Below, piece after piece: positions 3,509-17,636 of a DNA stretch of 64,000 nt. The DNA is from Candidatus Bathyarchaeota archaeon (lineage in GTDB: Archaea; Thermoproteota; Bathyarchaeia; Bathyarchaeales; Bathycorpusculaceae), in contig CAWHVC010000003.1 of NCBI GenBank assembly GCA_963832745.1, positions 160,001-224,000 on the forward strand, written 5' to 3'. The notes under the pieces are model-generated. The model was not told where the DNA came from. It saw nothing but the letters and a program-made list of their open reading frames with translations, and searched no databases. The position numbers and the translations under genes are program-made. How positions within the stretch are numbered: position 1 is the first letter of the stretch; each line of letters opens with the position of its first letter.

Positions 3509-3591
3509 TAAAGCTGCTTTGCCGGCAGATCATTTCTGGATGCTTCTAAGCCGTTCCAGATTTCACCATTTTAACTGAGAATTGAAAAAAC

Positions 3592-4335
3592 TTGAATAAA
3601 ACAACGTTTCATCAAAGTCGAAATCCAACAATAGCATGCATTGTCTTCTTTGCTGCCTACGTGCTATTCTCAATTCTAAGAGTAAACCTTCAGCCAATCG
3701 ATGTAGCAGTTAACCTTTGGACAATAACAATCCACAACGACATAGCAATCCTTTTGGCAAAAGCACTCTCAACAATTTTTGATACAATAATCATAGTTGC
3801 CGCATCAATAGTGATTGCAACTTTTCTTTTCTTAAAGAAACGTAAAGCCCAAAGTGTATTGCTTTTAACCGCTATAGGTGGAGAAGCCTTATTTGTAAAC
3901 ATCGTAAAAAATATTGACCAAGTCGCCCGACCAGAAAACCAGTTATTGCTTGGTTCCGGCTACTCTTATCCCAGCGGTCACAGTGCAGGCGTGGTTGTTT
4001 TCATCGGGTTAATTGCTTATTATGCTTGGCTAAACTGGGATAGCAGCAAACGTGTAAAGGTTTTTGCTTTGGCAGGTTTTGGTTTGCTTGTTGCTTTTGT
4101 GAGTTTTGACCGTGTCTATCTTAATGTGCACTGGTTAAGTGATGTTGTTGGTGGTTGGTTGTTTGGTGCTTTTTGGTTGTCATTTTGTATTATGGTGTAT
4201 GAGCGGTTGAAGTTTGCGGGCAAGTTTGAGACTGAACGGTTCAATTTCGCCGCCAACATTCTTTTTGGTGTTGGTGTTTTGGTTGCTGTTTCGATTGTTA
4301 CTTTGGGTTGGTTTTTTAATTATTTGACTTTTTGA
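3592..4335 (+). CDS. PAP2-family membrane phosphatase
   Basis: KxxxxxxRP, YPSGH, RVYLNVHWLSDV motifs. Confidence 0.92.
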   Translation: MNKTTFHQSRNPTIACIVFFAAYVLFSILRVNLQPIDVAVNLWTITIHNDIAILLAKALSTIFDTIIIVAASIVIATFLFLKKRKAQSVLLLTAIGGEALFVNIVKNIDQVARPENQLLLGSGYSYPSGHSAGVVVFIGLIAYYAWLNWDSSKRVKVFALAGFGLLVAFVSFDRVYLNVHWLSDVVGGWLFGAFWLSFCIMVYERLKFAGKFETERFNFAANILFGVGVLVAVSIVTLGWFFNYLTF

Positions 4336-4447: not shown

Positions 4448-6862
4448 ATGGCAGAGGCAAAAACAAAAAAAATCGTTCTTAACATTGGCGGCATGAGCTG
4501 CATAAACTGCGCCAAAGTAATAGAAAAATATACATCAAAACTAGGCGGTGTAACCCATGTAACCGTCAACTTAGCAGCTGAAAAAGCAATCATAGACTAC
4601 AACCCCGACATCATAGACCAAAAAACAATTGAAGCCACAATAACCGACATAGGCTACCAAGTAATCCATGAGAAAATAGTCATACCAGTCGGCGGAATGA
4701 CCTGCATAAACTGCGCCAAAACCATCGAAAAAGTCCTAAACGCCAGAGAAGGCGTCTACAACGCGGTTGTTAATTTTGCGGCTGAGCAAGTCGCTGTAGA
4801 GTACAATCCTGAACAAATAAGCAATGTAGCCATCAAAAAAGCGATAACCGATACGGGCTACGAAGTTATTGAAACTCAAAAAACCGCAGACGTAGACTCA
4901 GAAAGTAAAGCACGTCAACGCCATATTCAACGCCTAAAGCTTCTCTTAGTTTCAAGCGTTGCCTTGACGATTCCTATCATAATTTTAATGTGGATTCCAA
5001 TTCTGCCTATGGAAATAAACAAAATCGTAATGTTCCTCCTTGCAACTCCAGTTCAGTTTGTTGTAGGCTGGACATTTTACGTCGGTGCATACAAGGCATT
5101 ACGTAACAAAACCGCCAACATGGACACCTTAATCGCAATGGGTACATCCACCGCTTGGATTTACAGCACCATTGTAACTTTTCTGCCAGGCATATTTGGA
5201 GATGCAGCCGTATTCTTTGACACAGCAACCATGATTATGTCATTCATATTACTTGGCAAACTCTTAGACGCCATTGCTAAAGGCCGAACTTCCGAAGCGA
5301 TACGCAAGATTATGGGTTTGCAAGCCAAAGTTGCCCGCGTCATCCGAGACAGCGTCGAACAGGAGGTTCCAGTCGAAGAGGTTCAAGTCGGCGATATCAT
5401 CCTTGTTAAACCTGGAGAAAAAATTCCAGTTGACGGTATGGTTGTTGAAGGTTACTCGGCAGTTGACGAGAAAGTAATAACAGGCGAAAGCATCCCAGTC
5501 GAAAAGAAGGTTGGCGACCAAGTTGTCGGTGCAACCTTAAACAAAACAGGCGTATTCAAATTTAAAGCAACCAAAGTGGGAAAAGACACAGTTCTTGCCC
5601 AAATTATCGGCATGGTTGAAGATGCTTTAAGTTCAAAGGCGCCAGTTCAAAGACTTGCCGACGTTGCAGCAAGCTACTTTGTTCCCGCAATCATACTTAC
5701 TGCCACACTTTCCGCGTTCTTATGGTACTTTGTTGTCGGCGAAACCTATGTGTTCTCATTAACAGTGTTCATAGCAGTCTTAATCGTTGCATGCCCCTGC
5801 GCTTTGGGTCTTGCAACGCCCACAGCCATCATGGTTGGCGTTGGAAAAGGTGCAGAAAACGGCATCCTAATAAAAAGTGGCGAAGCCTTAGAAACAGCCC
5901 ACAAACTTCAAGCAATCGTATTTGACAAAACCGGGACACTCACAAAAGGAGAACCTGAAGTAACCGACATAATCCCACTAATCCCAGAAGCAGAACTTTT
6001 ACAGTTTGCGGCTATTGCAGAGAAAAACTCTGAGCATCCCCTCGGCGAAGCCATCACCCGAAAAGCTGCCATGCAAGGCGTAACAATCGAGGACCCAGAG
6101 TCTTTTGAGGCTATGCCCGGTTTTGGTGTACAAGTCACTTACAACCACAAACAGGTGCTTTTGGGTAACCGGAAACTGATGGAAACTAATAACATTGACA
6201 TCAGAGAGCTTGAACATAAAATGGCTACTCTCGAAGAGGGGGGCAAAACAGCAATGCTTGTTGCAGTAGACGGCAAGTTTGCCGGGTTAATTGCGGTTGC
6301 TGACACGTTAAAAGAACATTCCAGTGAGGCGGTACGTGTGCTTCAACAGATGGGCTTAGAAGTAGTCATGCTTACAGGGGATAATCAGAGAACCGCTGAT
6401 GCAATTGCAAAACAGGCAGGAGTAAACCGCGTGATCGCTGAAGTTTTGCCTGATGAAAAGGCTAACCAAATAAAGAAGTTGCAAGCAGAAGGCAAAGTTG
6501 TTGCGATGGTCGGCGACGGAATAAATGATGCACCCGCTTTAGCTCAGGCAAACATTGGCATCGCAGTTGGCAGCGGAACAGACGTAGCAGTGGAAACAGG
6601 CGATATAGTACTAATCAAAAATGACCTGCGTGATGTGGTAGTTAGCATTCAGTTAAGCCGTGCTACAATGCGAAAAATCAAGCAGAACCTGTTCTGGGCA
6701 TTCTTCTATAACATTATCCTCATACCATTGGCTGCTGGAGCCTTCTATCCAATACTGCATGTGCTCTTTGATCCCGTTTACGCTGCGGCTGCAATGGCAA
6801 CCAGTTCAGTAACTGTAGTAACAAACGCTTCATTGCTAAGGAGATTCAAACCAAAACTCTAA
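4448..6862 (+). CDS. copA: Cu(I)-translocating P1B-type ATPase with two HMA domains
   Basis: Two GMxCINC HMA motifs, TGES, CPC, DKTGT, SEHP, GDGIND, YN and MxxSS. Confidence 0.95.
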
Positions 6863-6900
6863 GTTACACGATAACCAATAGTATGGAGGTGAAACGTTTT

Positions 6901-7134
6901 ATGGCAAAAGATTTAGTTTGCAACATGGATGTTGACGAGAAAACCGCAAAATGGAAAACAGTTTACCAAGGAAAAACATACTACTTCTGCGCTCCAGGAT
7001 GCAAAAAAATGTTCGAAGAAGAACCGGAACTCTACATAAACGCTGAAGTCTCAGAAGACCAGCACCACCAGCATCATCACCATCACGAAGGAGAAGACAC
7101 TAAGAGCTGCGGTTGTGGCTGCGGAGGACACTAA
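6901..7134 (+). CDS. YHS/TRASH metal chaperone with His- and Cys-rich tail
   Basis: DLVCNM...YYFCAPGC, then HHQHHHHH and CGCGCGGH; follows copA; GGAGG RBS. Confidence 0.88.
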   Translation: MAKDLVCNMDVDEKTAKWKTVYQGKTYYFCAPGCKKMFEEEPELYINAEVSEDQHHQHHHHHEGEDTKSCGCGCGGH

Positions 7135-7158
7135 ACCCCCGCTTCTAGTTTTATTTTT

Positions 7159-7833
7159 TTAAATGTCATTTTCTTTCTTTAAAGGCTCAGAAACCGTTGC
7201 CAACAAGATGTTTTCAGCAAACAAGTCCTCATCAAAAGCTCCAACAAAATCAATTTTATCGTTAATTACAACTTTAGGAACACCCATAACATTGTATTTC
7301 ATGCTTAAGTCGGGAAATTCGCTTGTGCTAATAACATCGGCTTTTACGAAGTCACTTTCAACTGCAAGTTTGTGAGCTATAGCGGCTGCAACGGGGCAGT
7401 GTGGACAAGTTAGGGAGACAAAAACTTGAATGTGCACAGGAGATTTAACGTCTTGAAGTATCTTTTTGGTTTTTTCTGTTAAGTCAGTTGATCCCTTTGA
7501 AACGTTAAAGATTGCGTCAATCAGGGCTTGTAATTCGTATCCATAGGGCAATCCGTAGATTCTTACGCCATAATCTTTTGCACCGATAATCGCCAACGCG
7601 GGAATCTTGTCAATTCCGTACTCTTTAGCTTTCGCAGCGTCAGCAACAAAATCGTAAACTTCAACCGACAACTTACCGTTTAAACTAGCGATTTCCTGAA
7701 TTAACCCTCTTGTGTTGTTACAGGAACCGCACTCTATTTCTTGTGTAAACATAACAATTCTGACGGGGTTACTTAGTTTCAGGTTTAAATCGTTTTTTAA
7801 AAGGTCTTTTTTGTCTTCAGGAATCATTCCCAT
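7159..7833 (-). CDS. Protein disulfide oxidoreductase (two thioredoxin folds)
   Basis: CGSC and CPHC motifs, VMGVPK. Confidence 0.9.
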   Translation of the reverse strand: MGMIPEDKKDLLKNDLNLKLSNPVRIVMFTQEIECGSCNNTRGLIQEIASLNGKLSVEVYDFVADAAKAKEYGIDKIPALAIIGAKDYGVRIYGLPYGYELQALIDAIFNVSKGSTDLTEKTKKILQDVKSPVHIQVFVSLTCPHCPVAAAIAHKLAVESDFVKADVISTSEFPDLSMKYNVMGVPKVVINDKIDFVGAFDEDLFAENILLATVSEPLKKENDI

Positions 7834-7949: not shown

Positions 7950-8894
7950 TTATGCATTATCGCCGTTGAAAACGTGCCTTGATGAACTTGAGGTTTCTTC
8001 GACCAACTGGTGAAGTCCATCAAGAACAAAAGCAAGTCTTTCACCTTTACTGGTTAAACCGTACATTTTTGGTGTTTTGCGAATGAAAATTAGTTTCTTT
8101 CCTTTCAAACCACGTAGGTACTTGTAGGTTCGTCTTATTGAAAGCCCTGTTTCTTTAGCTAGTTTGCCTGCAGAAATGCCTTCGGGACTGATTGCTTCGT
8201 AAACTCTTTTTTCTGTTGGTGCAAGGTTTTCTTTGCTTGGGTCTCGTTTGGATTTGAAGAAGAATATGTAATCTCTTTCTTTTGGTGTTTCAATTAAATC
8301 TTCTTCACGCAGACGTTTTAGGATGCGAGAAGTAATTTTTGGCGCAATTAGTTCTTGTACGTCTTCGAAAGTTTTAGGTCCAGCAAGTAAGGCGCAAAGC
8401 AGTGTTTCTTCGTAACATTCGCTATGTGCAGGAAGTACTGTGCAGTATTCTGGAAAACCAAAAAGTAGCTCAGTTAATCTACCGCCGAAATTGGTTGCGT
8501 AATACTCGTCTCTAGTTTCATTTGCAAGACCTACTTGCATTAACGGACGCAGATACTCAGCGTTGATAGTGTCTTGACTGTGTGTGTGACCTGTTTTTTT
8601 CAGTTCTTGCTGAATCTGACTAACCGAGTATTTGCCTTTAACGATTGATTGTAAAATGTGGAATCTAGTTTCATTTTTTAGGACATTAAATAGGTCTTTG
8701 ATGAAGTTTGGGTTGTCCATTGTGTCACGTAGTTGGCGCAACTCATTTTTTAGTTTGTATACTTGGCAGCGTCCAATACATTCAAGTGGTGATACAGGTG
8801 CACAGTTTCGGCATTCAGTGTCAAGTGTAGACAATAGGTCTGCGAGGTCCTTCTTTTTTTCGCCGTTTTTTATCGGCATTACGACATTTCCCAT
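7950..8894 (-). CDS. Multi-winged-helix putative regulator with N-terminal Cys cluster
   Basis: CRNC-x7-CIGRC followed by about three wHTH-like units; start moved to ATG 8894 because the longer ORF overlaps the opposite gene. Confidence 0.7.
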   Translation of the reverse strand: MGNVVMPIKNGEKKKDLADLLSTLDTECRNCAPVSPLECIGRCQVYKLKNELRQLRDTMDNPNFIKDLFNVLKNETRFHILQSIVKGKYSVSQIQQELKKTGHTHSQDTINAEYLRPLMQVGLANETRDEYYATNFGGRLTELLFGFPEYCTVLPAHSECYEETLLCALLAGPKTFEDVQELIAPKITSRILKRLREEDLIETPKERDYIFFFKSKRDPSKENLAPTEKRVYEAISPEGISAGKLAKETGLSIRRTYKYLRGLKGKKLIFIRKTPKMYGLTSKGERLAFVLDGLHQLVEETSSSSRHVFNGDNA

Positions 8895-8949
8895 TATTTC
8901 CCCCTCTCGACATTGCCATGACGGGTGAAGGAGTAAAGAGATTGGTTGT

Positions 8950-9013
8950 GAAAAACTTGTAACGTTTTTCGATAGTCCCGTCATGACACGCGTCATAGGT
9001 ATGACAATCGTCA
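8950..9013. promoter_or_regulatory. Palindromic operator candidates in divergent promoter
   Basis: GAAAAAC-N7-GTTTTTC (8950-8970); TGAC-N4-GTCA at 8984-8995 and 9002-9013, next to TTTAAATA TATA-like box. Confidence 0.5.
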
Positions 9014-9060
9014 ACTTTAAATATATTTCCCCATAAATTACCCAATAATCAGGTGATTGT

Positions 9061-9468
9061 TTGCTGTTACCATGTGAAGTCGGAGTGAAAACAGTTCTGC
9101 CAGCAGTAAAAGCCATAATGGCCAGAACAATCGTAGAAAAACATGGATTAAAAGAAAAAGATACTGCAACGCTTTTGGGTTTGTCGCAATCTGCCATTAG
9201 CCGGTACATGAACCGTGACCGCGGCAATAACCTGCTTGAAATAGAAAACACACTGGAAGTCCAGTTACTTATTGACCAGATGGTTACTTACCTAGTTAAG
9301 GAACCAGAGAAAAAACATGAAATTATGACGTTATTCTGTCAAACCTGCAAAACCATCCGCGAAAAGGGCTTGATGTGCAAACTGTGCCGTAAAGATATGA
9401 ATGAAGACTGGGCTCAAGATTGCGCTTTTTGCAGAGTTGAGGCAATAAAAATCTGCCAACCGCCCTAA
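9061..9468 (+). CDS. HTH transcriptional regulator with Cys-rich C-terminus
   Basis: LPCE N-terminus, LGLSQSAISRY HTH, CQTC/CKLC/CAFC. Confidence 0.82.
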   Translation: MLLPCEVGVKTVLPAVKAIMARTIVEKHGLKEKDTATLLGLSQSAISRYMNRDRGNNLLEIENTLEVQLLIDQMVTYLVKEPEKKHEIMTLFCQTCKTIREKGLMCKLCRKDMNEDWAQDCAFCRVEAIKICQPP

Positions 9469-12241: not shown

Positions 12242-12646
12242 TCAAGGTAACGCAAATGAATGCAGGCCAACCGTGAAAAACGAAGCCAGAAGTGTTACAA
12301 TTACCAAAATGCATGAGACAAGAGAAGCCCATTTGGCAAGCTTGAATTTTCCTTCAAAATTAAAAACTGAACCAAACGAAACAGAGAGGAACAGCAGAAG
12401 TGTTGAGGTTTCTTTTGGGTCCCATGACCAGTAGTTACCCCATGCTGTTTGAGCCCAAAGCATACCCGAAGCTAACCCCAGAAAGGTGAACAGCCATGCG
12501 GCCAAACAAAAAATGCCAGTTAACTTGTTGTCTCTAAGACGGCTAATCGATAGTGCCGTTGCAAATAGGAAGACAAAAACGTAACCTATGATGGCTAATG
12601 GGGGATGAATGTAGAGCATTACAGAAGTTAATTCGTGACTGCTCAT
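12242..12646 (-). CDS. ccsA: Minimal cytochrome c heme-attachment protein (CcsA-like)
   Basis: [21 protein letters not shown] tryptophan-rich motif, C-terminal GLHSF. Confidence 0.82.
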
Positions 12647-13683
12647 GACGGTTTCTTTGCCCTCATTTTAACGACAACAAAAACAGCAGCCAACAAAACC
12701 GTTACAACCGCCGCCACAATTGTAATCGTTATCCAGTCGATCCCTTGGGCTTCTTCTACTTCAAAGCTGGTAATTGTTGATGCTGACTGAACAGAAGATG
12801 AAGAGTCTTGAATGGTTGCTCGAATAGCACAGGTTGATGCCATATCTGGGGTTGTCCACTGGTAACTGCCGCTGCCGGGCAAGTCAGTTGCCAACGTTAT
12901 CCATTGTTTATTGTTTATTATGTATTCCAGTTTGACTTTCAGGGTGCTTGTTCCGCCGGTGGCTTGCCACTGAATGGTCTGCTTTGAACCTATCGGCAAA
13001 TGTTCACCTTGAGTTGGAGCTGTAATTTGAATTGATAGGGTTGTTTGGGTTGTCGATGGTGAAGCAGAAGGTTGAGTGGAGGTTGAAGGTGTGTTTGTTA
13101 GGGTAGCTGTTGAGGTGGGGGCTGGTGTCGATGTGGACTGTGTTGGTGTGGGTGTTGATGCTGGGGGTGTTGGTGTGGGAAAAGGTTCTGGGGTTCCTGT
13201 GGGTTGACCTATAGTAATTAACGGGTAAGGTGAGTAGGTATCAGAGAAATAGCAGTTGCCATGCGTATTGTATCCTGTTGCTTGAATATTCAGGTAGTCG
13301 TAGCCATCTGAGGTTCCTGTTATTTGCCATGTAGCTGTTGTAGTTCCTGAAGGTAAGGAACCAATGGTGTATGTAGGGTTGGTAACTTTGAAATGGCCAT
13401 TGGCAGAACTTAACGTTAAGGAAACACCGTTCATAGTTGAGTAGGTTGCTGTGTTAACGTCATTTAAGACAACCACTTTTACGGTAATAGTTTGATCAAC
13501 ACTTAATGTTGAAGGTATTTGGTTGCCACTATCACCTTCAAGAATGTCAAGGTACTGATAATATCCCTCTGAACTGTGGCAGCTTTGGCAGGGATTATTT
13601 GAAATACTAAGGGTTGGCGGAGAAAAAACCAGCCCAAGAACAGCCAAAGATACAATTAGCACTATTATTGTCACTTTTTTCAA
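12643..13683 (-). CDS. Surface-anchored putative monoheme c-type cytochrome
   Basis: Signal peptide, CQSCH, beta-rich domains, P/T/S linker, C-terminal TM and basic tail; ATGA overlap with ccsA. Confidence 0.72.
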
Positions 13684-16331: not shown

Positions 16332-17636
16332 ATGCATAAGCAATTCACAGTTTCACTTATCGCAATCATTTTTACTTTAACAATTACCAGCATAATCGCT
16401 GTCTCCGTCGAGCCAGCTAAAGCTGAAACGGGCAAAACCATAAGGGTCCCACAAGACTTTCCCAGCATAAACGCCGCAGTAGGCAATGCTTCACAGGGGG
16501 ACACCATATTTGTGAAAGGCGGAGTTTACACTGAAAAATTGGTTATTGATAAGCAATTGTCGCTTGTGGGCGAGGATGAAGCTTTAACCGTTATTGATGG
16601 GGGCGGAGAGGGAACAGTTGTTTGGATAAACGTTGACAATGTTACCTTAAGCGGATTTACCATAAGAAATAGTGGTGACAACTTTACGGACAGCGGCATC
16701 TATGTCAACAGCTCCAAAAGCGCAACTCTTTCGGGCAATACGGTTACCAGCAACAACATCGGAGTTTATCTTGCTGAGTCTCCTAAAAGCCTGCTCAGAG
16801 ACAACGCTTTAGAGGGCAACAAGTTCAATTTTGGCGTTTACAGCAGCAATTTTGACGGCTACATCCAAGACATTGACCAGTCGAACACTGTGGAAGGCAA
16901 ACCGATGGTTTATTGGGTAAATACAGAAGACAAACAAGCCCCATCCAACGCGGGGTATATTGCTGTTGTGAATTGCACCGACATAACGGTTTCCAGCGTG
17001 GTTTTAGAGAAGAACTGGCAAAACCTACTGTTTGCCTACACCAACAACTCCAAAATCACAAACGTGACAAGCACACTAGGCGAGGACAGTCTTTGGCTAA
17101 TAGACAGCCATAACTGCAACCTACAAAACAGCAACATAACAGGAAACATTTGGGGCGGCACAGCTCTTGTTAACACTTCAAACTGCACAGTTCAAGGCAA
17201 CACTTTCAAGGCCAACGGCGGCTATGGTTTGTTTCTGTCAGATTCTTCAGGTAACCTGTTTTACCATAACAACTTCATATCTAACCCTCACCAAGCATGG
17301 CTCTATGGTCAAAACAGTAACAGTTGGGACAATGGTTACCCAAGCGGTGGAAACTATTGGAATAATTACACGGGCGTGGACCAAAAAAAAGGTCCCAACC
17401 AGAATGAAACGGGAAGCGATGGCATCGGTGATACCCCAGTTTACTTAGGGCAGGACAACGTTGATAATTACCCATTGATGACTCCATGGACCCAGCAGCC
17501 AAATGTGCCTGTCGTGATACCCATAGAGTTTTCAGTAACCGGAATAATTGCAGTAACCGTCATACTTGCCATTTTCATAGTTTACTTCGCGAAAAAGTGG
17601 TCAACAAAAAAGCAAGCAGCAAAAGAGGAAAAATAA
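16332..17636 (+). CDS. NosD/pectin-lyase beta-helix surface protein
   Basis: IRVPQDFPSINAAV, parallel beta-helix Asn repeats, GNYWNNY..DGIGDTP..DNYPL, C-terminal TM. Confidence 0.85.
   Translation: MHKQFTVSLIAIIFTLTITSIIAVSVEPAKAETGKTIRVPQDFPSINAAVGNASQGDTIFVKGGVYTEKLVIDKQLSLVGEDEALTVIDGGGEGTVVWINVDNVTLSGFTIRNSGDNFTDSGIYVNSSKSATLSGNTVTSNNIGVYLAESPKSLLRDNALEGNKFNFGVYSSNFDGYIQDIDQSNTVEGKPMVYWVNTEDKQAPSNAGYIAVVNCTDITVSSVVLEKNWQNLLFAYTNNSKITNVTSTLGEDSLWLIDSHNCNLQNSNITGNIWGGTALVNTSNCTVQGNTFKANGGYGLFLSDSSGNLFYHNNFISNPHQAWLYGQNSNSWDNGYPSGGNYWNNYTGVDQKKGPNQNETGSDGIGDTPVYLGQDNVDNYPLMTPWTQQPNVPVVIPIEFSVTGIIAVTVILAIFIVYFAKKWSTKKQAAKEEK

Follow-up and report, generated by a model that had tools for sequence, protein, structure and literature searches.

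The stretch of DNA analysed here, termed the window, comprises 64,000 nucleotides (positions 160,001 to 224,000 of contig CAWHVC010000003.1) from a Candidatus Bathyarchaeota archaeon, and contains two overlapping genes that encode a small membrane protein of the WWD family, referred to as the mini protein, and an exported protein with a single CxxCH motif, referred to as the partner. Judging from their sequences, the two probably make up a module in which a minimal, substrate-dedicated cytochrome c synthase produces a surface monoheme cytochrome. Among the known relatives of the enzymes that join heme to cytochromes c, the mini protein is the smallest. By its sequence it corresponds to the core shared by CcmC, CcmF and CcsA and nothing more: the WWD loop, the four helices and a pair of His residues that face outward. 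Its family can be ranked as a minimal, fourth branch of the WWD superfamily, one that comes with a substrate family of its own. The initial annotation, a reading of the DNA letters, had proposed a stripped-down heme lyase dedicated to its neighbour; the comparisons below support this reading, having turned up neither a full-length family from which this copy was cut short nor a partner family that lacks the motif.

Anatomy of the Mini Protein

The stop codon of the partner gene and the start codon of the mini gene overlap in an ATGA at 12643-12646. Upstream of the ATG the reading frame stays open for only 7 codons (open frame 141 aa), so that no longer form of the mini protein is possible, and the start and the length of 134 aa that the initial annotation had read from the overlap are confirmed. 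The protein matches PF01578 (Cytochrom_C_asm) with an E value of 2.5e-20 (73.5 bits against a cut-off of 29.9) over profile positions 64-204 of 212. The AlphaFold2 model, with a mean predicted local distance difference test (pLDDT) score of 82.6 and a predicted template modelling score (pTM) of 0.77, consists of helices 3-33, 41-69, 77-97 and 101-131, in agreement with the approximately four transmembrane (TM) segments first noted. The loops 34-40 and 98-100 are short and, as read from the sequence, rich in Arg and Lys; they are therefore assigned to the inside of the cell, which leaves H14, the WWD loop and H129 outside, and both termini are predicted to be outside. IHPP, the CcsA-type WWD loop and GLHSF are all found where they had been noticed (Table 1).

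The protein has three His residues in total, H4, H14 and H129. Helix 3, which follows the WWD loop, contains none of them, and the sole His of helix 4 is the terminal H129. An alignment of 22 diverse members of the family contains 32 invariant columns. H14 and P15, nine residues of the WWD loop (W69, G70, W73, W75, D76, P77, K78, E79 and T80), and G127, L128, H129 and S130 are identical in 22/22 sequences, and there is no conserved His column other than H14 and H129. The alignment bears out the early observation that only the two His residues flanking the WWD loop are conserved and that the TM helix following it is devoid of His.

Among solved proteins, the mini family profile matches E. coli CcmC best (E 1.6e-8), followed by T. 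thermophilus CcmF (3.8e-7), B. thetaiotaomicron CcsBA (1.9e-5) and H. hepaticus CcsBA (6.2e-5). H14 aligns with the His of YLHVP in E. coli CcmC (7f02_C) and of AVHP in CcmF (6zmq), while GLHSF aligns with the P-His2 motif, which is GLHSY in B. thetaiotaomicron CcsBA (25vk) and GMHSY in H. hepaticus CcsBA (7s9y). The WWD loop of the mini protein aligns with those of CcmC, CcmF and CcsBA, and the CcsBA alignment places no His of the mini protein opposite the membrane-His region of CcsA. A Foldseek search with the mini model listed CcmC 8ce1_C first (E 1e-2, TM-score 0.63, 126 columns), followed by CcmC again and by CcmF, with no match at E<=0.001.

Size, Distribution and Phylogeny of the Mini Family

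A word-indexed search of proteins of 73-235 aa identified 218 of 246 candidates as homologs at E<=1e-3. The 120 that are listed are 122-170 aa long, and the sources named among them are Bathyarchaeia or Bathyarchaeota. A HMMER scan of 1.84 billion representatives without length limit gave 7137 matches at E<=1e-3, 193 at 1e-10 and 19 at 1e-30. Approximately the top 40 of these (E<1e-22) belong to the mini family; they are pieces or stand-alone proteins of 103-185 aa or fusions with the partner and are never of the size of CcsA or CcmC, whereas matches below this level have the lengths of ordinary CcsA, CcmC and CcmF. A length of ~130 aa is the conserved native length of the mini family in Bathyarchaeia and Thermoplasmatota, with no truncation, and the small or fused homologs thus dispose of the concern, voiced in the initial annotation, that the family might be full-length and this copy cut short.

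Two derivations from a conventional enzyme were considered and rejected. A truncated CcsA or a CcsA pseudogene is ruled out by the conserved small family seen in the 22-sequence alignment and in both homolog searches. A split CcsA with its other half elsewhere is ruled out as well: the genome contains only two PF01578 matches, no conserved neighbour was found, and in natural fusions with the partner an extracellular linker leads straight into the N-terminus of the mini domain.

A tree of the core region was calculated with IQ-TREE in quick mode from 86 non-identical rows and 135 kept columns; identical duplicates, matches with a domain E value >1e-6, open reading frames (ORFs) containing X and three loci with broken frames were left out. 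All 55 mini rows form one clade, with a Shimodaira-Hasegawa-like approximate likelihood ratio test (SH-aLRT) value of 92. The 18 bacterial CcsA rows form a separate group (SH-aLRT 81); E. coli CcmF and six CcmF-like proteins from the order of the window's organism, among them the 630-aa protein of the window's genome, form another (SH-aLRT 99), apart from the mini clade, and the five CcmC rows make up the fourth. The 27 Bathyarchaeia mini rows are one group (SH-aLRT 97) nested among Thermoplasmatota rows. The deep branching order is unsure because of the few columns and the quick search. The scores of the mini protein against the NCBIfam models are 50.4 bits versus a cut-off of 187.6 for CcsA (TIGR03144), 44.2 versus 186 for CcmC (TIGR01191), and 36.6 versus 569 for CcmF/NrfE (TIGR00353). 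The first description as a mini-CcsA therefore holds for the WWD family and not for CcsA in the strict sense, since the protein belongs to a clade of its own beside CcsA, CcmF and CcmC and scores far below the cut-offs of all three.

Linkage and Fusion to CxxCH Proteins

A locus scan with one genome per species yielded 79 loci, the top 57 of which (L017-L073) belong to the mini family; 28/57 are Bathyarchaeia-type and 29/57 are from Thermoplasmatota or other archaea. At 44/57 loci, a same-strand ORF of at least 150 aa that carries exactly one CxxCH-type motif (residues 26-86) ends next to the mini gene, and another 4/57 are single fused ORFs, which brings the pairing to 48/57. The tally was made by script and the doubtful loci were inspected by eye. 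As background, any CxxCH occurs in 31/5004 ORFs of at least 80 aa in the window's own genome. The co-occurrence of mini genes with CxxCH neighbours, which the initial annotation had proposed as a check, is hence borne out. Clustering of the neighbourhoods over the 57 loci revealed no further gene beside the cassette that is common to both lineages. We also note that locus L040 (DATIXS010000133.1; same coordinates as contig 133 of genome G009) is titled Candidatus Acidoferrum; the contig has a Bathyarchaeia-type fused gene and the genome is placed in the window's genus, so that the bacterial title is probably a labelling or binning inconsistency.

Fused ORFs of 357-388 aa are present in genomes G028, G009 and G014 and at loci L032 and L041, and consist of a signal helix, CxxCH, an immunoglobulin (Ig)-like domain, a Pro/Thr-rich linker and the mini protein. 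The HMMER scan added more fused representatives of 334-390 aa. In the fusions the mini domain stands in for the partner's own C-terminal anchor, and its N-terminus continues from the extracellular linker, which provides independent support for the topology with the N-terminus outside. The existence of natural fusions is in itself evidence for functional coupling of the two proteins. A further group, the triple fusions P0190 (824 aa), P0193 (728 aa), P0240 (734 aa) and P0181 (423 aa, N-terminus without CxxCH), is built from an Ig-like ectodomain with CxxCH, then CarboxypepD_reg/PEGA repeats before the mini domain and a membrane domain of ~200 aa after it. The membrane domain contains two His pairs spaced 14 and gives weak Ni_hydr_CYTB matches (E 0.002-0.004).

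In the Thermoplasmatota partners, C30, C33 and H34 are invariant in 22/22 sequences. These partners have a C-terminal multi-helix domain with four His residues at least 90% conserved, arranged in pairs 14 apart (H313/H327 and H382/H396). At E<=0.01 in Pfam, Ferric_reduct matches 13/22 of them (best E 3.3e-7), DUF4405 11/22 and Ni_hydr_CYTB 6/22, and the one member tabulated lies under the cut-offs. The domain is a candidate two-heme b-type membrane domain. The recurring theme would be a predicted heme c ectodomain beside a WWD core, often beside a candidate two-heme b-type membrane module. In many Thermoplasmatota loci (among them L044, L048, L053, L058 and L064; ~500-2750), a second gene of ~740-816 aa with a single N-terminal CxxCH is situated directly upstream of the partner. 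This second family clusters in 12 loci and gives two single-heme candidates per mini lyase.

The Partner Protein

The AlphaFold2 model of the partner, built from 50 homologs, has a mean pLDDT of 84. It displays two beta-sandwich domains separated by a disordered linker and followed by an anchor, and confirms the earlier description of CQSCH just after a signal peptide, then Ig-like domains, a Pro/Thr-rich stalk and a C-terminal anchor. The best fold match of the second sandwich is 3pdg_A (Z 11.6, root-mean-square deviation (rmsd) 2.0 over 90 residues), and shorter partner homologs of 268 aa are without this domain. The first 170 residues have 50 homolog clusters, none of which is functionally named. 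A search of the ESM Atlas with residues 25-170 had its best score, 0.86, with a cluster of hypothetical proteins from Thermoplasmatota; this falls short of the 0.9 level and serves as a lead only.

Across 50 partner homologs the motif is CxxCH in 43 and CX4CH in 2, and C32, C35, H36 and H97 are at least 90% conserved, while H141 is invariant. Together with the pairing at 48/57 loci, these figures answer the question, raised with the initial annotation, whether CxxCH is conserved among partner homologs. H141 and H97 are the candidates for the distal (sixth) heme ligand. In 50/50 motif-bearing partners, the first Cys is located 1-15 residues (median 6) past the N-terminal hydrophobic segment. 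Only a few residues separate the motif from the hydrophobic helix, and this keeps it at the surface of the membrane, the location of the WWD site.

Some otherwise conserved partners have non-canonical motifs: CSGTGCH at L006/L027, CSSCPH at L008, CxxCxH in P0138 and P0160, a single Cys in P0134 and CSSYH in P0176. Such spacings and losses may reflect natural variation in the attachment chemistry, or the copies may be inactive.

Genome Context and Heme Supply

The window's genome (99% complete) contains no ResB (PF05140) and no CcmE (PF03100) at E<=1, and no true CcmC. Its two PF01578 matches are the mini protein and a CcmF-like ORF of 630 aa. The earlier statement that no ccsB or ccm gene lies nearby is correct for the window and, as regards ccsB and ccmE, for the whole genome; it needs the amendment that the CcmF-like gene exists on another contig (G000 contig 4, ~200.8-206.3 kb; L096 4790-10281). 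The neighbours of that gene encode a weakly DUF420-like membrane protein, a COX1-family CcoN (476 aa) and a three-heme FixO/CcoO-CcoP fusion (528 aa), a cluster which by its sequence is a cbb3-type oxidase in a Bathyarchaeon. The CcmF-like lyase stands alone, as no CcmE, CcmC or CcmH-type partner was detected in the window's genome.

With regard to heme supply, for which a genome search had also been suggested, genes for tetrapyrrole synthesis are present: the window's genome and 3/3 near-complete mini-bearing relatives have ALAD, which was not found in two genomes that are 56% and 66% complete. Adjacent AhbD-like radical S-adenosylmethionine genes in the window's genome score 427.6 and 214.5 bits, below the 500-bit cut-off. 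A DsbD/CcdA-type gene is located elsewhere in the genome.

A search of 61 genomes of the window's genus and order (37 from the genus, 24 from other families of the order) found the mini gene in 6/61, namely the window's own, G008, G024, G028, G009 and G014. The partner domain occurs in 6/6 mini-bearing genomes and also in G022, with a weak match in G051. The mini gene is the only PF01578 gene in G008 (100% complete) and G024 (93%), from which FixO is absent, while the CcmF-like gene and FixO occur without a mini gene in G001, G022 and G015. Since the CcmF-like and the mini gene occur separately, they represent two lyase-substrate pairs that are inherited independently, and since the mini gene is the sole WWD gene in G008 and G024, the cassette does not rely on another WWD protein. 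The independent occurrence also rules out that the mini protein is a CcmC/CcmE stand-in serving the CcmF-like gene.

Proposed Mechanism

By analogy with CcsBA and CcmC, the heme b bound by the mini protein would sit beneath the WWD loop at the outer face of the membrane, between H14 and H129. The partner would be exported through Sec, with its CxxCH kept next to the WWD site at the surface of the membrane. As has been proposed for CcsBA, the two Cys residues of the partner would then add to the heme vinyls, and H129 would give way to the His of the motif as axial ligand. The product would be a membrane-tethered monoheme c-type cytochrome on an Ig-like domain at the cell surface, with H141 or H97 as the likely sixth ligand. 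The leading candidate for the route of heme across the membrane is a channel of the four core helices, as proposed for CcmC. The likely job of the family is to move electrons across and out of the membrane, given that in Thermoplasmatota a b-type domain is joined to the ectodomain; we infer this role from the b-type domains that the Thermoplasmatota partners share with the triple fusions. Electron transfer is thus a prediction, as are the binding of heme and the formation of the thioethers.

When the mini protein and residues 1-165 of the partner were modelled as a complex with heme, the score was 0.60 versus 0.03 for the best control, a result graded as weak support. The mark applied is reached by 58/80 solved complexes and by 2/110 mismatched pairs. 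The three runs share at least 53% of contacts, with a partner pLDDT of at least 84.

Alternative Readings

Several observations weigh against a dedicated synthase and its cytochrome. Heme binding by the mini protein and heme attachment to the partner are both predictions. The mini protein is without the membrane His residues that CcsBA needs, and heme export by four helices has no precedent. In the complex prediction, scores of 0.60 or lower were obtained for 7/80 solved complexes and for both mismatches that passed. VIA-align of the mini model with CcmF (Z 13.1, rmsd 2.6 over 120 residues) is tied with unrelated designed four-helix bundles, and the fold evidence is thus consistent with WWD membership and does not discriminate. 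A Pfam scan of the partner found no family at its cut-off, and Foldseek against the PDB and VIA-align wide listed only generic Ig, FN3 and macroglobulin-like (MG) domains, with no known cytochrome fold among them. The case for an electron-transfer role is poorest for the partner in the window itself, whose anchor is only a single helix and for which no electron donor was identified.

The conservation of the module is also imperfect. The motif is not universal among the 50 partner homologs, as 2 have CxxCxH, 1 has a single Cys, 1 is without a motif and 1 is without the N-terminus; the fused G014 protein has CSSCPH and P0176 has CSSYH. P0181, P0190 and P0193 are without GLHSF (P-His2), and so is P0240, which has IYPP and a degenerate WWD loop and keeps CSSCH. 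Among the mini loci, L035, L045 and L073 have <520 bases of upstream DNA, too little to judge pairing; the mini frames of L036, L052 and L060 are broken, with L052 still carrying an upstream CSSCH ORF; L030 has a mini gene without an upstream partner; L033 has a CSSCH ORF 1.5 kb downstream of the mini gene, and L069 has no motif. The cassette is patchy, being present in 6/37 genomes of the window's genus and 0/24 from other families of the order, and G022 (95% complete) has a CSSCH partner homolog and the CcmF-like gene without a mini gene.

Two of these cases have a layout of their own. At L033, the sequence that begins the protein of the 497-aa CSSCH ORF (5908-7401) recurs in an 86-aa ORF (3542-3802) located upstream of the mini gene; it looks as if a local rearrangement or duplication parted the partner from the lyase. 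The G022 partner homolog (L098 1532-2374, contig 38) is 280 aa long, with CSSCH, an Ig-like domain, a Pro/Thr-rich linker and an anchor, and FixO is present in the same genome.

How much the mini protein does by itself is a separate matter. In the most far-reaching version, one four-helix protein of ~130 aa is a complete maturation system, which passes heme through its helix channel and attaches it to CxxCH without CcsB, CcmABDE, a membrane His or any other dedicated factor; we regard this tentatively, as a possibility and not as our expectation. The same reserve applies to the opposite view, in which the mini protein provides the attachment site only and is not autonomous, heme export and thiol reduction being left to unlinked helpers such as an unrelated exporter and a CcdA-type path. 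This view might be adopted for three reasons: the membrane His site that CcsBA needs according to PMC10663686 is missing from the mini protein, a DsbD/CcdA-type gene is encoded elsewhere, and the window's genome also has the CcmF-like protein. Against this view, no other gene is conserved beside the cassette in both lineages, G008 and G024 have no other PF01578 gene, and the window's genome is without CcmE, ResB and true CcmC. The argument from the membrane His is weakened by CcmC, which is described as lacking membrane His as well (PMC10663686), while CcmCD alone is reported to suffice to load CcmE and to bring heme to the WWD site (PMC10663686; PMC12077264).

It is improbable that the two proteins form a permanent complex instead of an enzyme and its product, with the WWD protein staying bound and the heme site serving as a fixed redox centre in a conduit from b heme to WWD-held heme c to the outside. 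The fusions do keep both parts together for life, the triple fusions and the Thermoplasmatota partners carry the membrane domain with two His pairs, and the triple fusions, having lost P-His2, would be without the ligand that normally makes room for the product to leave. Most members are nevertheless separate genes in which the partner has its own anchor (44/57 loci), and the matches of the b-type domain are weak (best E 3.3e-7; tabulated member below the Pfam cut-offs). To our knowledge, no WWD protein acts as a redox subunit.

Similarly slim is the chance of a non-respiratory function in heme handling, in which the partner would keep heme at the cell surface for purposes of storage, sensing, detoxification or scavenging and would be loaded or unloaded by the WWD protein in the way CcmC loads CcmE. 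A CxxCH motif forms two stable thioethers with heme, unlike the reversible single bond of CcmE. The closest solved relative of the mini family by sequence is indeed CcmC (E 1.6e-8), CcmE itself is absent from the window's genome, and the partner resembles CcmE in being membrane-tethered and beta-rich with one site of covalent attachment. The occurrence of the mini cassette is independent of that of the CcmF-like gene, which leaves no place for a CcmE stand-in for CcmF; the heme-synthesis genes speak against scavenging, and electron transfer is what the b-type membrane domains of the Thermoplasmatota partners suggest.

Finally, a module unrelated to heme, in which CxxCH serves as a metal site or makes a disulfide and the WWD protein has either drifted to another role or is a decaying remnant, would agree with the damaged motifs of some members and with the lack of any Pfam or structural match between the partner and known cytochromes, but is very unlikely in view of the invariance (22/22) of both heme-ligand His residues and nine WWD-loop residues, the joint conservation of Cys, Cys and His, the spread of the family over two phyla-level lineages, and the pairing at 48/57 loci versus 31/5004 ORFs in the background.

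Implications

Whether a four-helix core alone can move and attach heme is described as unsettled in PMC10663686. The mini family is a natural minimal core that comes with its own substrate, and the sufficiency of the core becomes testable with two small genes or one fused gene. If a dedicated synthase is what the cassette encodes, c-type cytochromes, and perhaps outward electron transfer, extend to Bathyarchaeia and to more Thermoplasmatota. Bathyarchaeia are counted among the most abundant sediment archaea (PMC10321748), and a 2015 survey reported only System I in Archaea (PMC4429474). Should the mini protein be a complete system, the fourth, archaeal WWD branch would represent the natural minimal form of the machine, and the Thermoplasmatota partners and triple fusions would be a conduit from two b hemes to heme c and out of the cell. 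Full-text searches of the literature found no description of a four-helix WWD protein or of the mini-partner pair; subscription journals and supplements are outside their coverage, and such a description may be in print. The current labels 'CcsA', 'ABC-type transport system involved in cytochrome c biogenesis permease' and 'hypothetical protein' hide the module.

Features of the Window

The coordinates of the two genes and their domains are collected in Table 1. The neighbours of the cassette in the window encode weakly VIT1-like, CoA-binding, HtrA-like protease and NosD-like proteins as well as winged helix-turn-helix regulators, none of which showed a link to it. Two of them lie a few kb from the cassette with no link found: a NosD/beta-helix protein of 434 aa (16332-17636, plus strand) and a 433-aa protein with several winged-helix domains (7950-9251, minus strand). 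A search of public sequencing runs listed no RNA run with the sequence, and one DNA run contained a small share (0.07) of its words.

Table 1. Positions of the mini gene, the partner gene and their parts in the window
Feature	Residues	Position (nt)	Strand	Remarks
Mini WWD-family gene		12242..12646	(-)	134 aa, ATG start; PF01578; four TM helices
IHPP with H14	13-16	12599-12610	(-)	P-His1 equivalent, outer end of helix 1
WWD loop, 12 residues between helices 2 and 3	69-80	12407-12442	(-)	Trp-rich
GLHSF with H129	127-131	12254-12268	(-)	P-His2 equivalent at C-terminal end
Partner gene		12643..13683	(-)	346 aa, TTG start; exported, membrane-anchored, one CxxCH
N-terminal hydrophobic helix	~1-24 (model helix 2-19)	13612..13683	(-)	Signal peptide or transient membrane tether
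CQSCH	32-36	13576..13590	(-)	Heme c attachment motif (by sequence)
First Ig-like/macroglobulin-like beta-sandwich	43-158	13210..13557	(-)	Carries H97 and H141
Pro/Thr-rich disordered linker	~165-213	13045..13191	(-)	pLDDT <50 at 180-198 and 200-211
Second Ig-like/FN3-like beta-sandwich	217-310	12754..13035	(-)	AlphaFold2 model and fold match
C-terminal TM anchor	317-342	12658..12735	(-)	AlphaFold2 model; mini protein stands there in natural fusions

Comparison with Known Systems

The core common to WWD proteins has been described as four helices, the WWD loop and two periplasmic His residues, and the four helices to form a channel that may carry heme (PMC10663686). Like CcmC, the mini protein has its WWD loop between two outward His residues and membrane His residues are absent in both; CcmCD alone is stated to be enough for heme transport (PMC10663686). 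In contrast to the mini protein with four helices and 134 aa, CcmC has six helices and 245 aa in E. coli. CcmC furthermore works with CcmD, CcmAB and the chaperone CcmE, which takes up heme via a single His-vinyl bond, whereas the mini protein occurs in a genome without CcmE and its predicted acceptor is the CxxCH protein.

In this last respect the mini protein would resemble CcsA and CcsBA (7s9y, 7s9z, 25vk), as CcsBA attaches heme directly to CxxCH without a chaperone. NCBI and JGI pipelines label members of the mini family 'CcsA'. CcsBA, however, needs CcsB and two membrane His residues that hold a second heme for export, and the mini protein has neither; the requirement of these two His residues for moving heme is reported in PMC10663686.

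Two-heme membrane modules have a characteristic rule of His-pair spacing. The Thermoplasmatota partners and the triple fusions are like the ferric-reductase-domain and cytochrome b561-type modules (PF01794, PF01292 and DUF4405) in having two His pairs 14 apart, with weak matches, while the window's own partner differs from them in having a single-helix anchor only. The full-text searches found no paper in which such a b-type domain is fused to a heme c ectodomain and a WWD protein. A synthase made of one protein is known from System III of mitochondria, where HCCS offers a functional analogy only: it is an unrelated, peripheral eukaryotic protein outside the WWD family and needs no heme export.

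The closest parallel for a lyase gene placed beside its substrate is provided by full-size paralogs. Wolinella CcsA1 and NrfI are lyase paralogs dedicated to substrates beside which they are encoded. Substrate-adjacent full-size paralogs are already known, as reported in PMC9012536 for CcmF2 beside MHC-B of anaerobic methanotrophic archaea (ANME) and NrfE for NrfA, where a WWD lyase gene stands beside the cytochrome that it presumably serves. The window's genome shows this pattern twice, once with the mini protein and its partner, and once with the CcmF-like protein and the cbb3 subunits. Unlike CcmF2, NrfE, CcsA1 and NrfI, which are full-size paralogs within a complete System I or II, the mini protein consists of the core only, can be the sole WWD gene of its genome, and is sometimes fused to its substrate.

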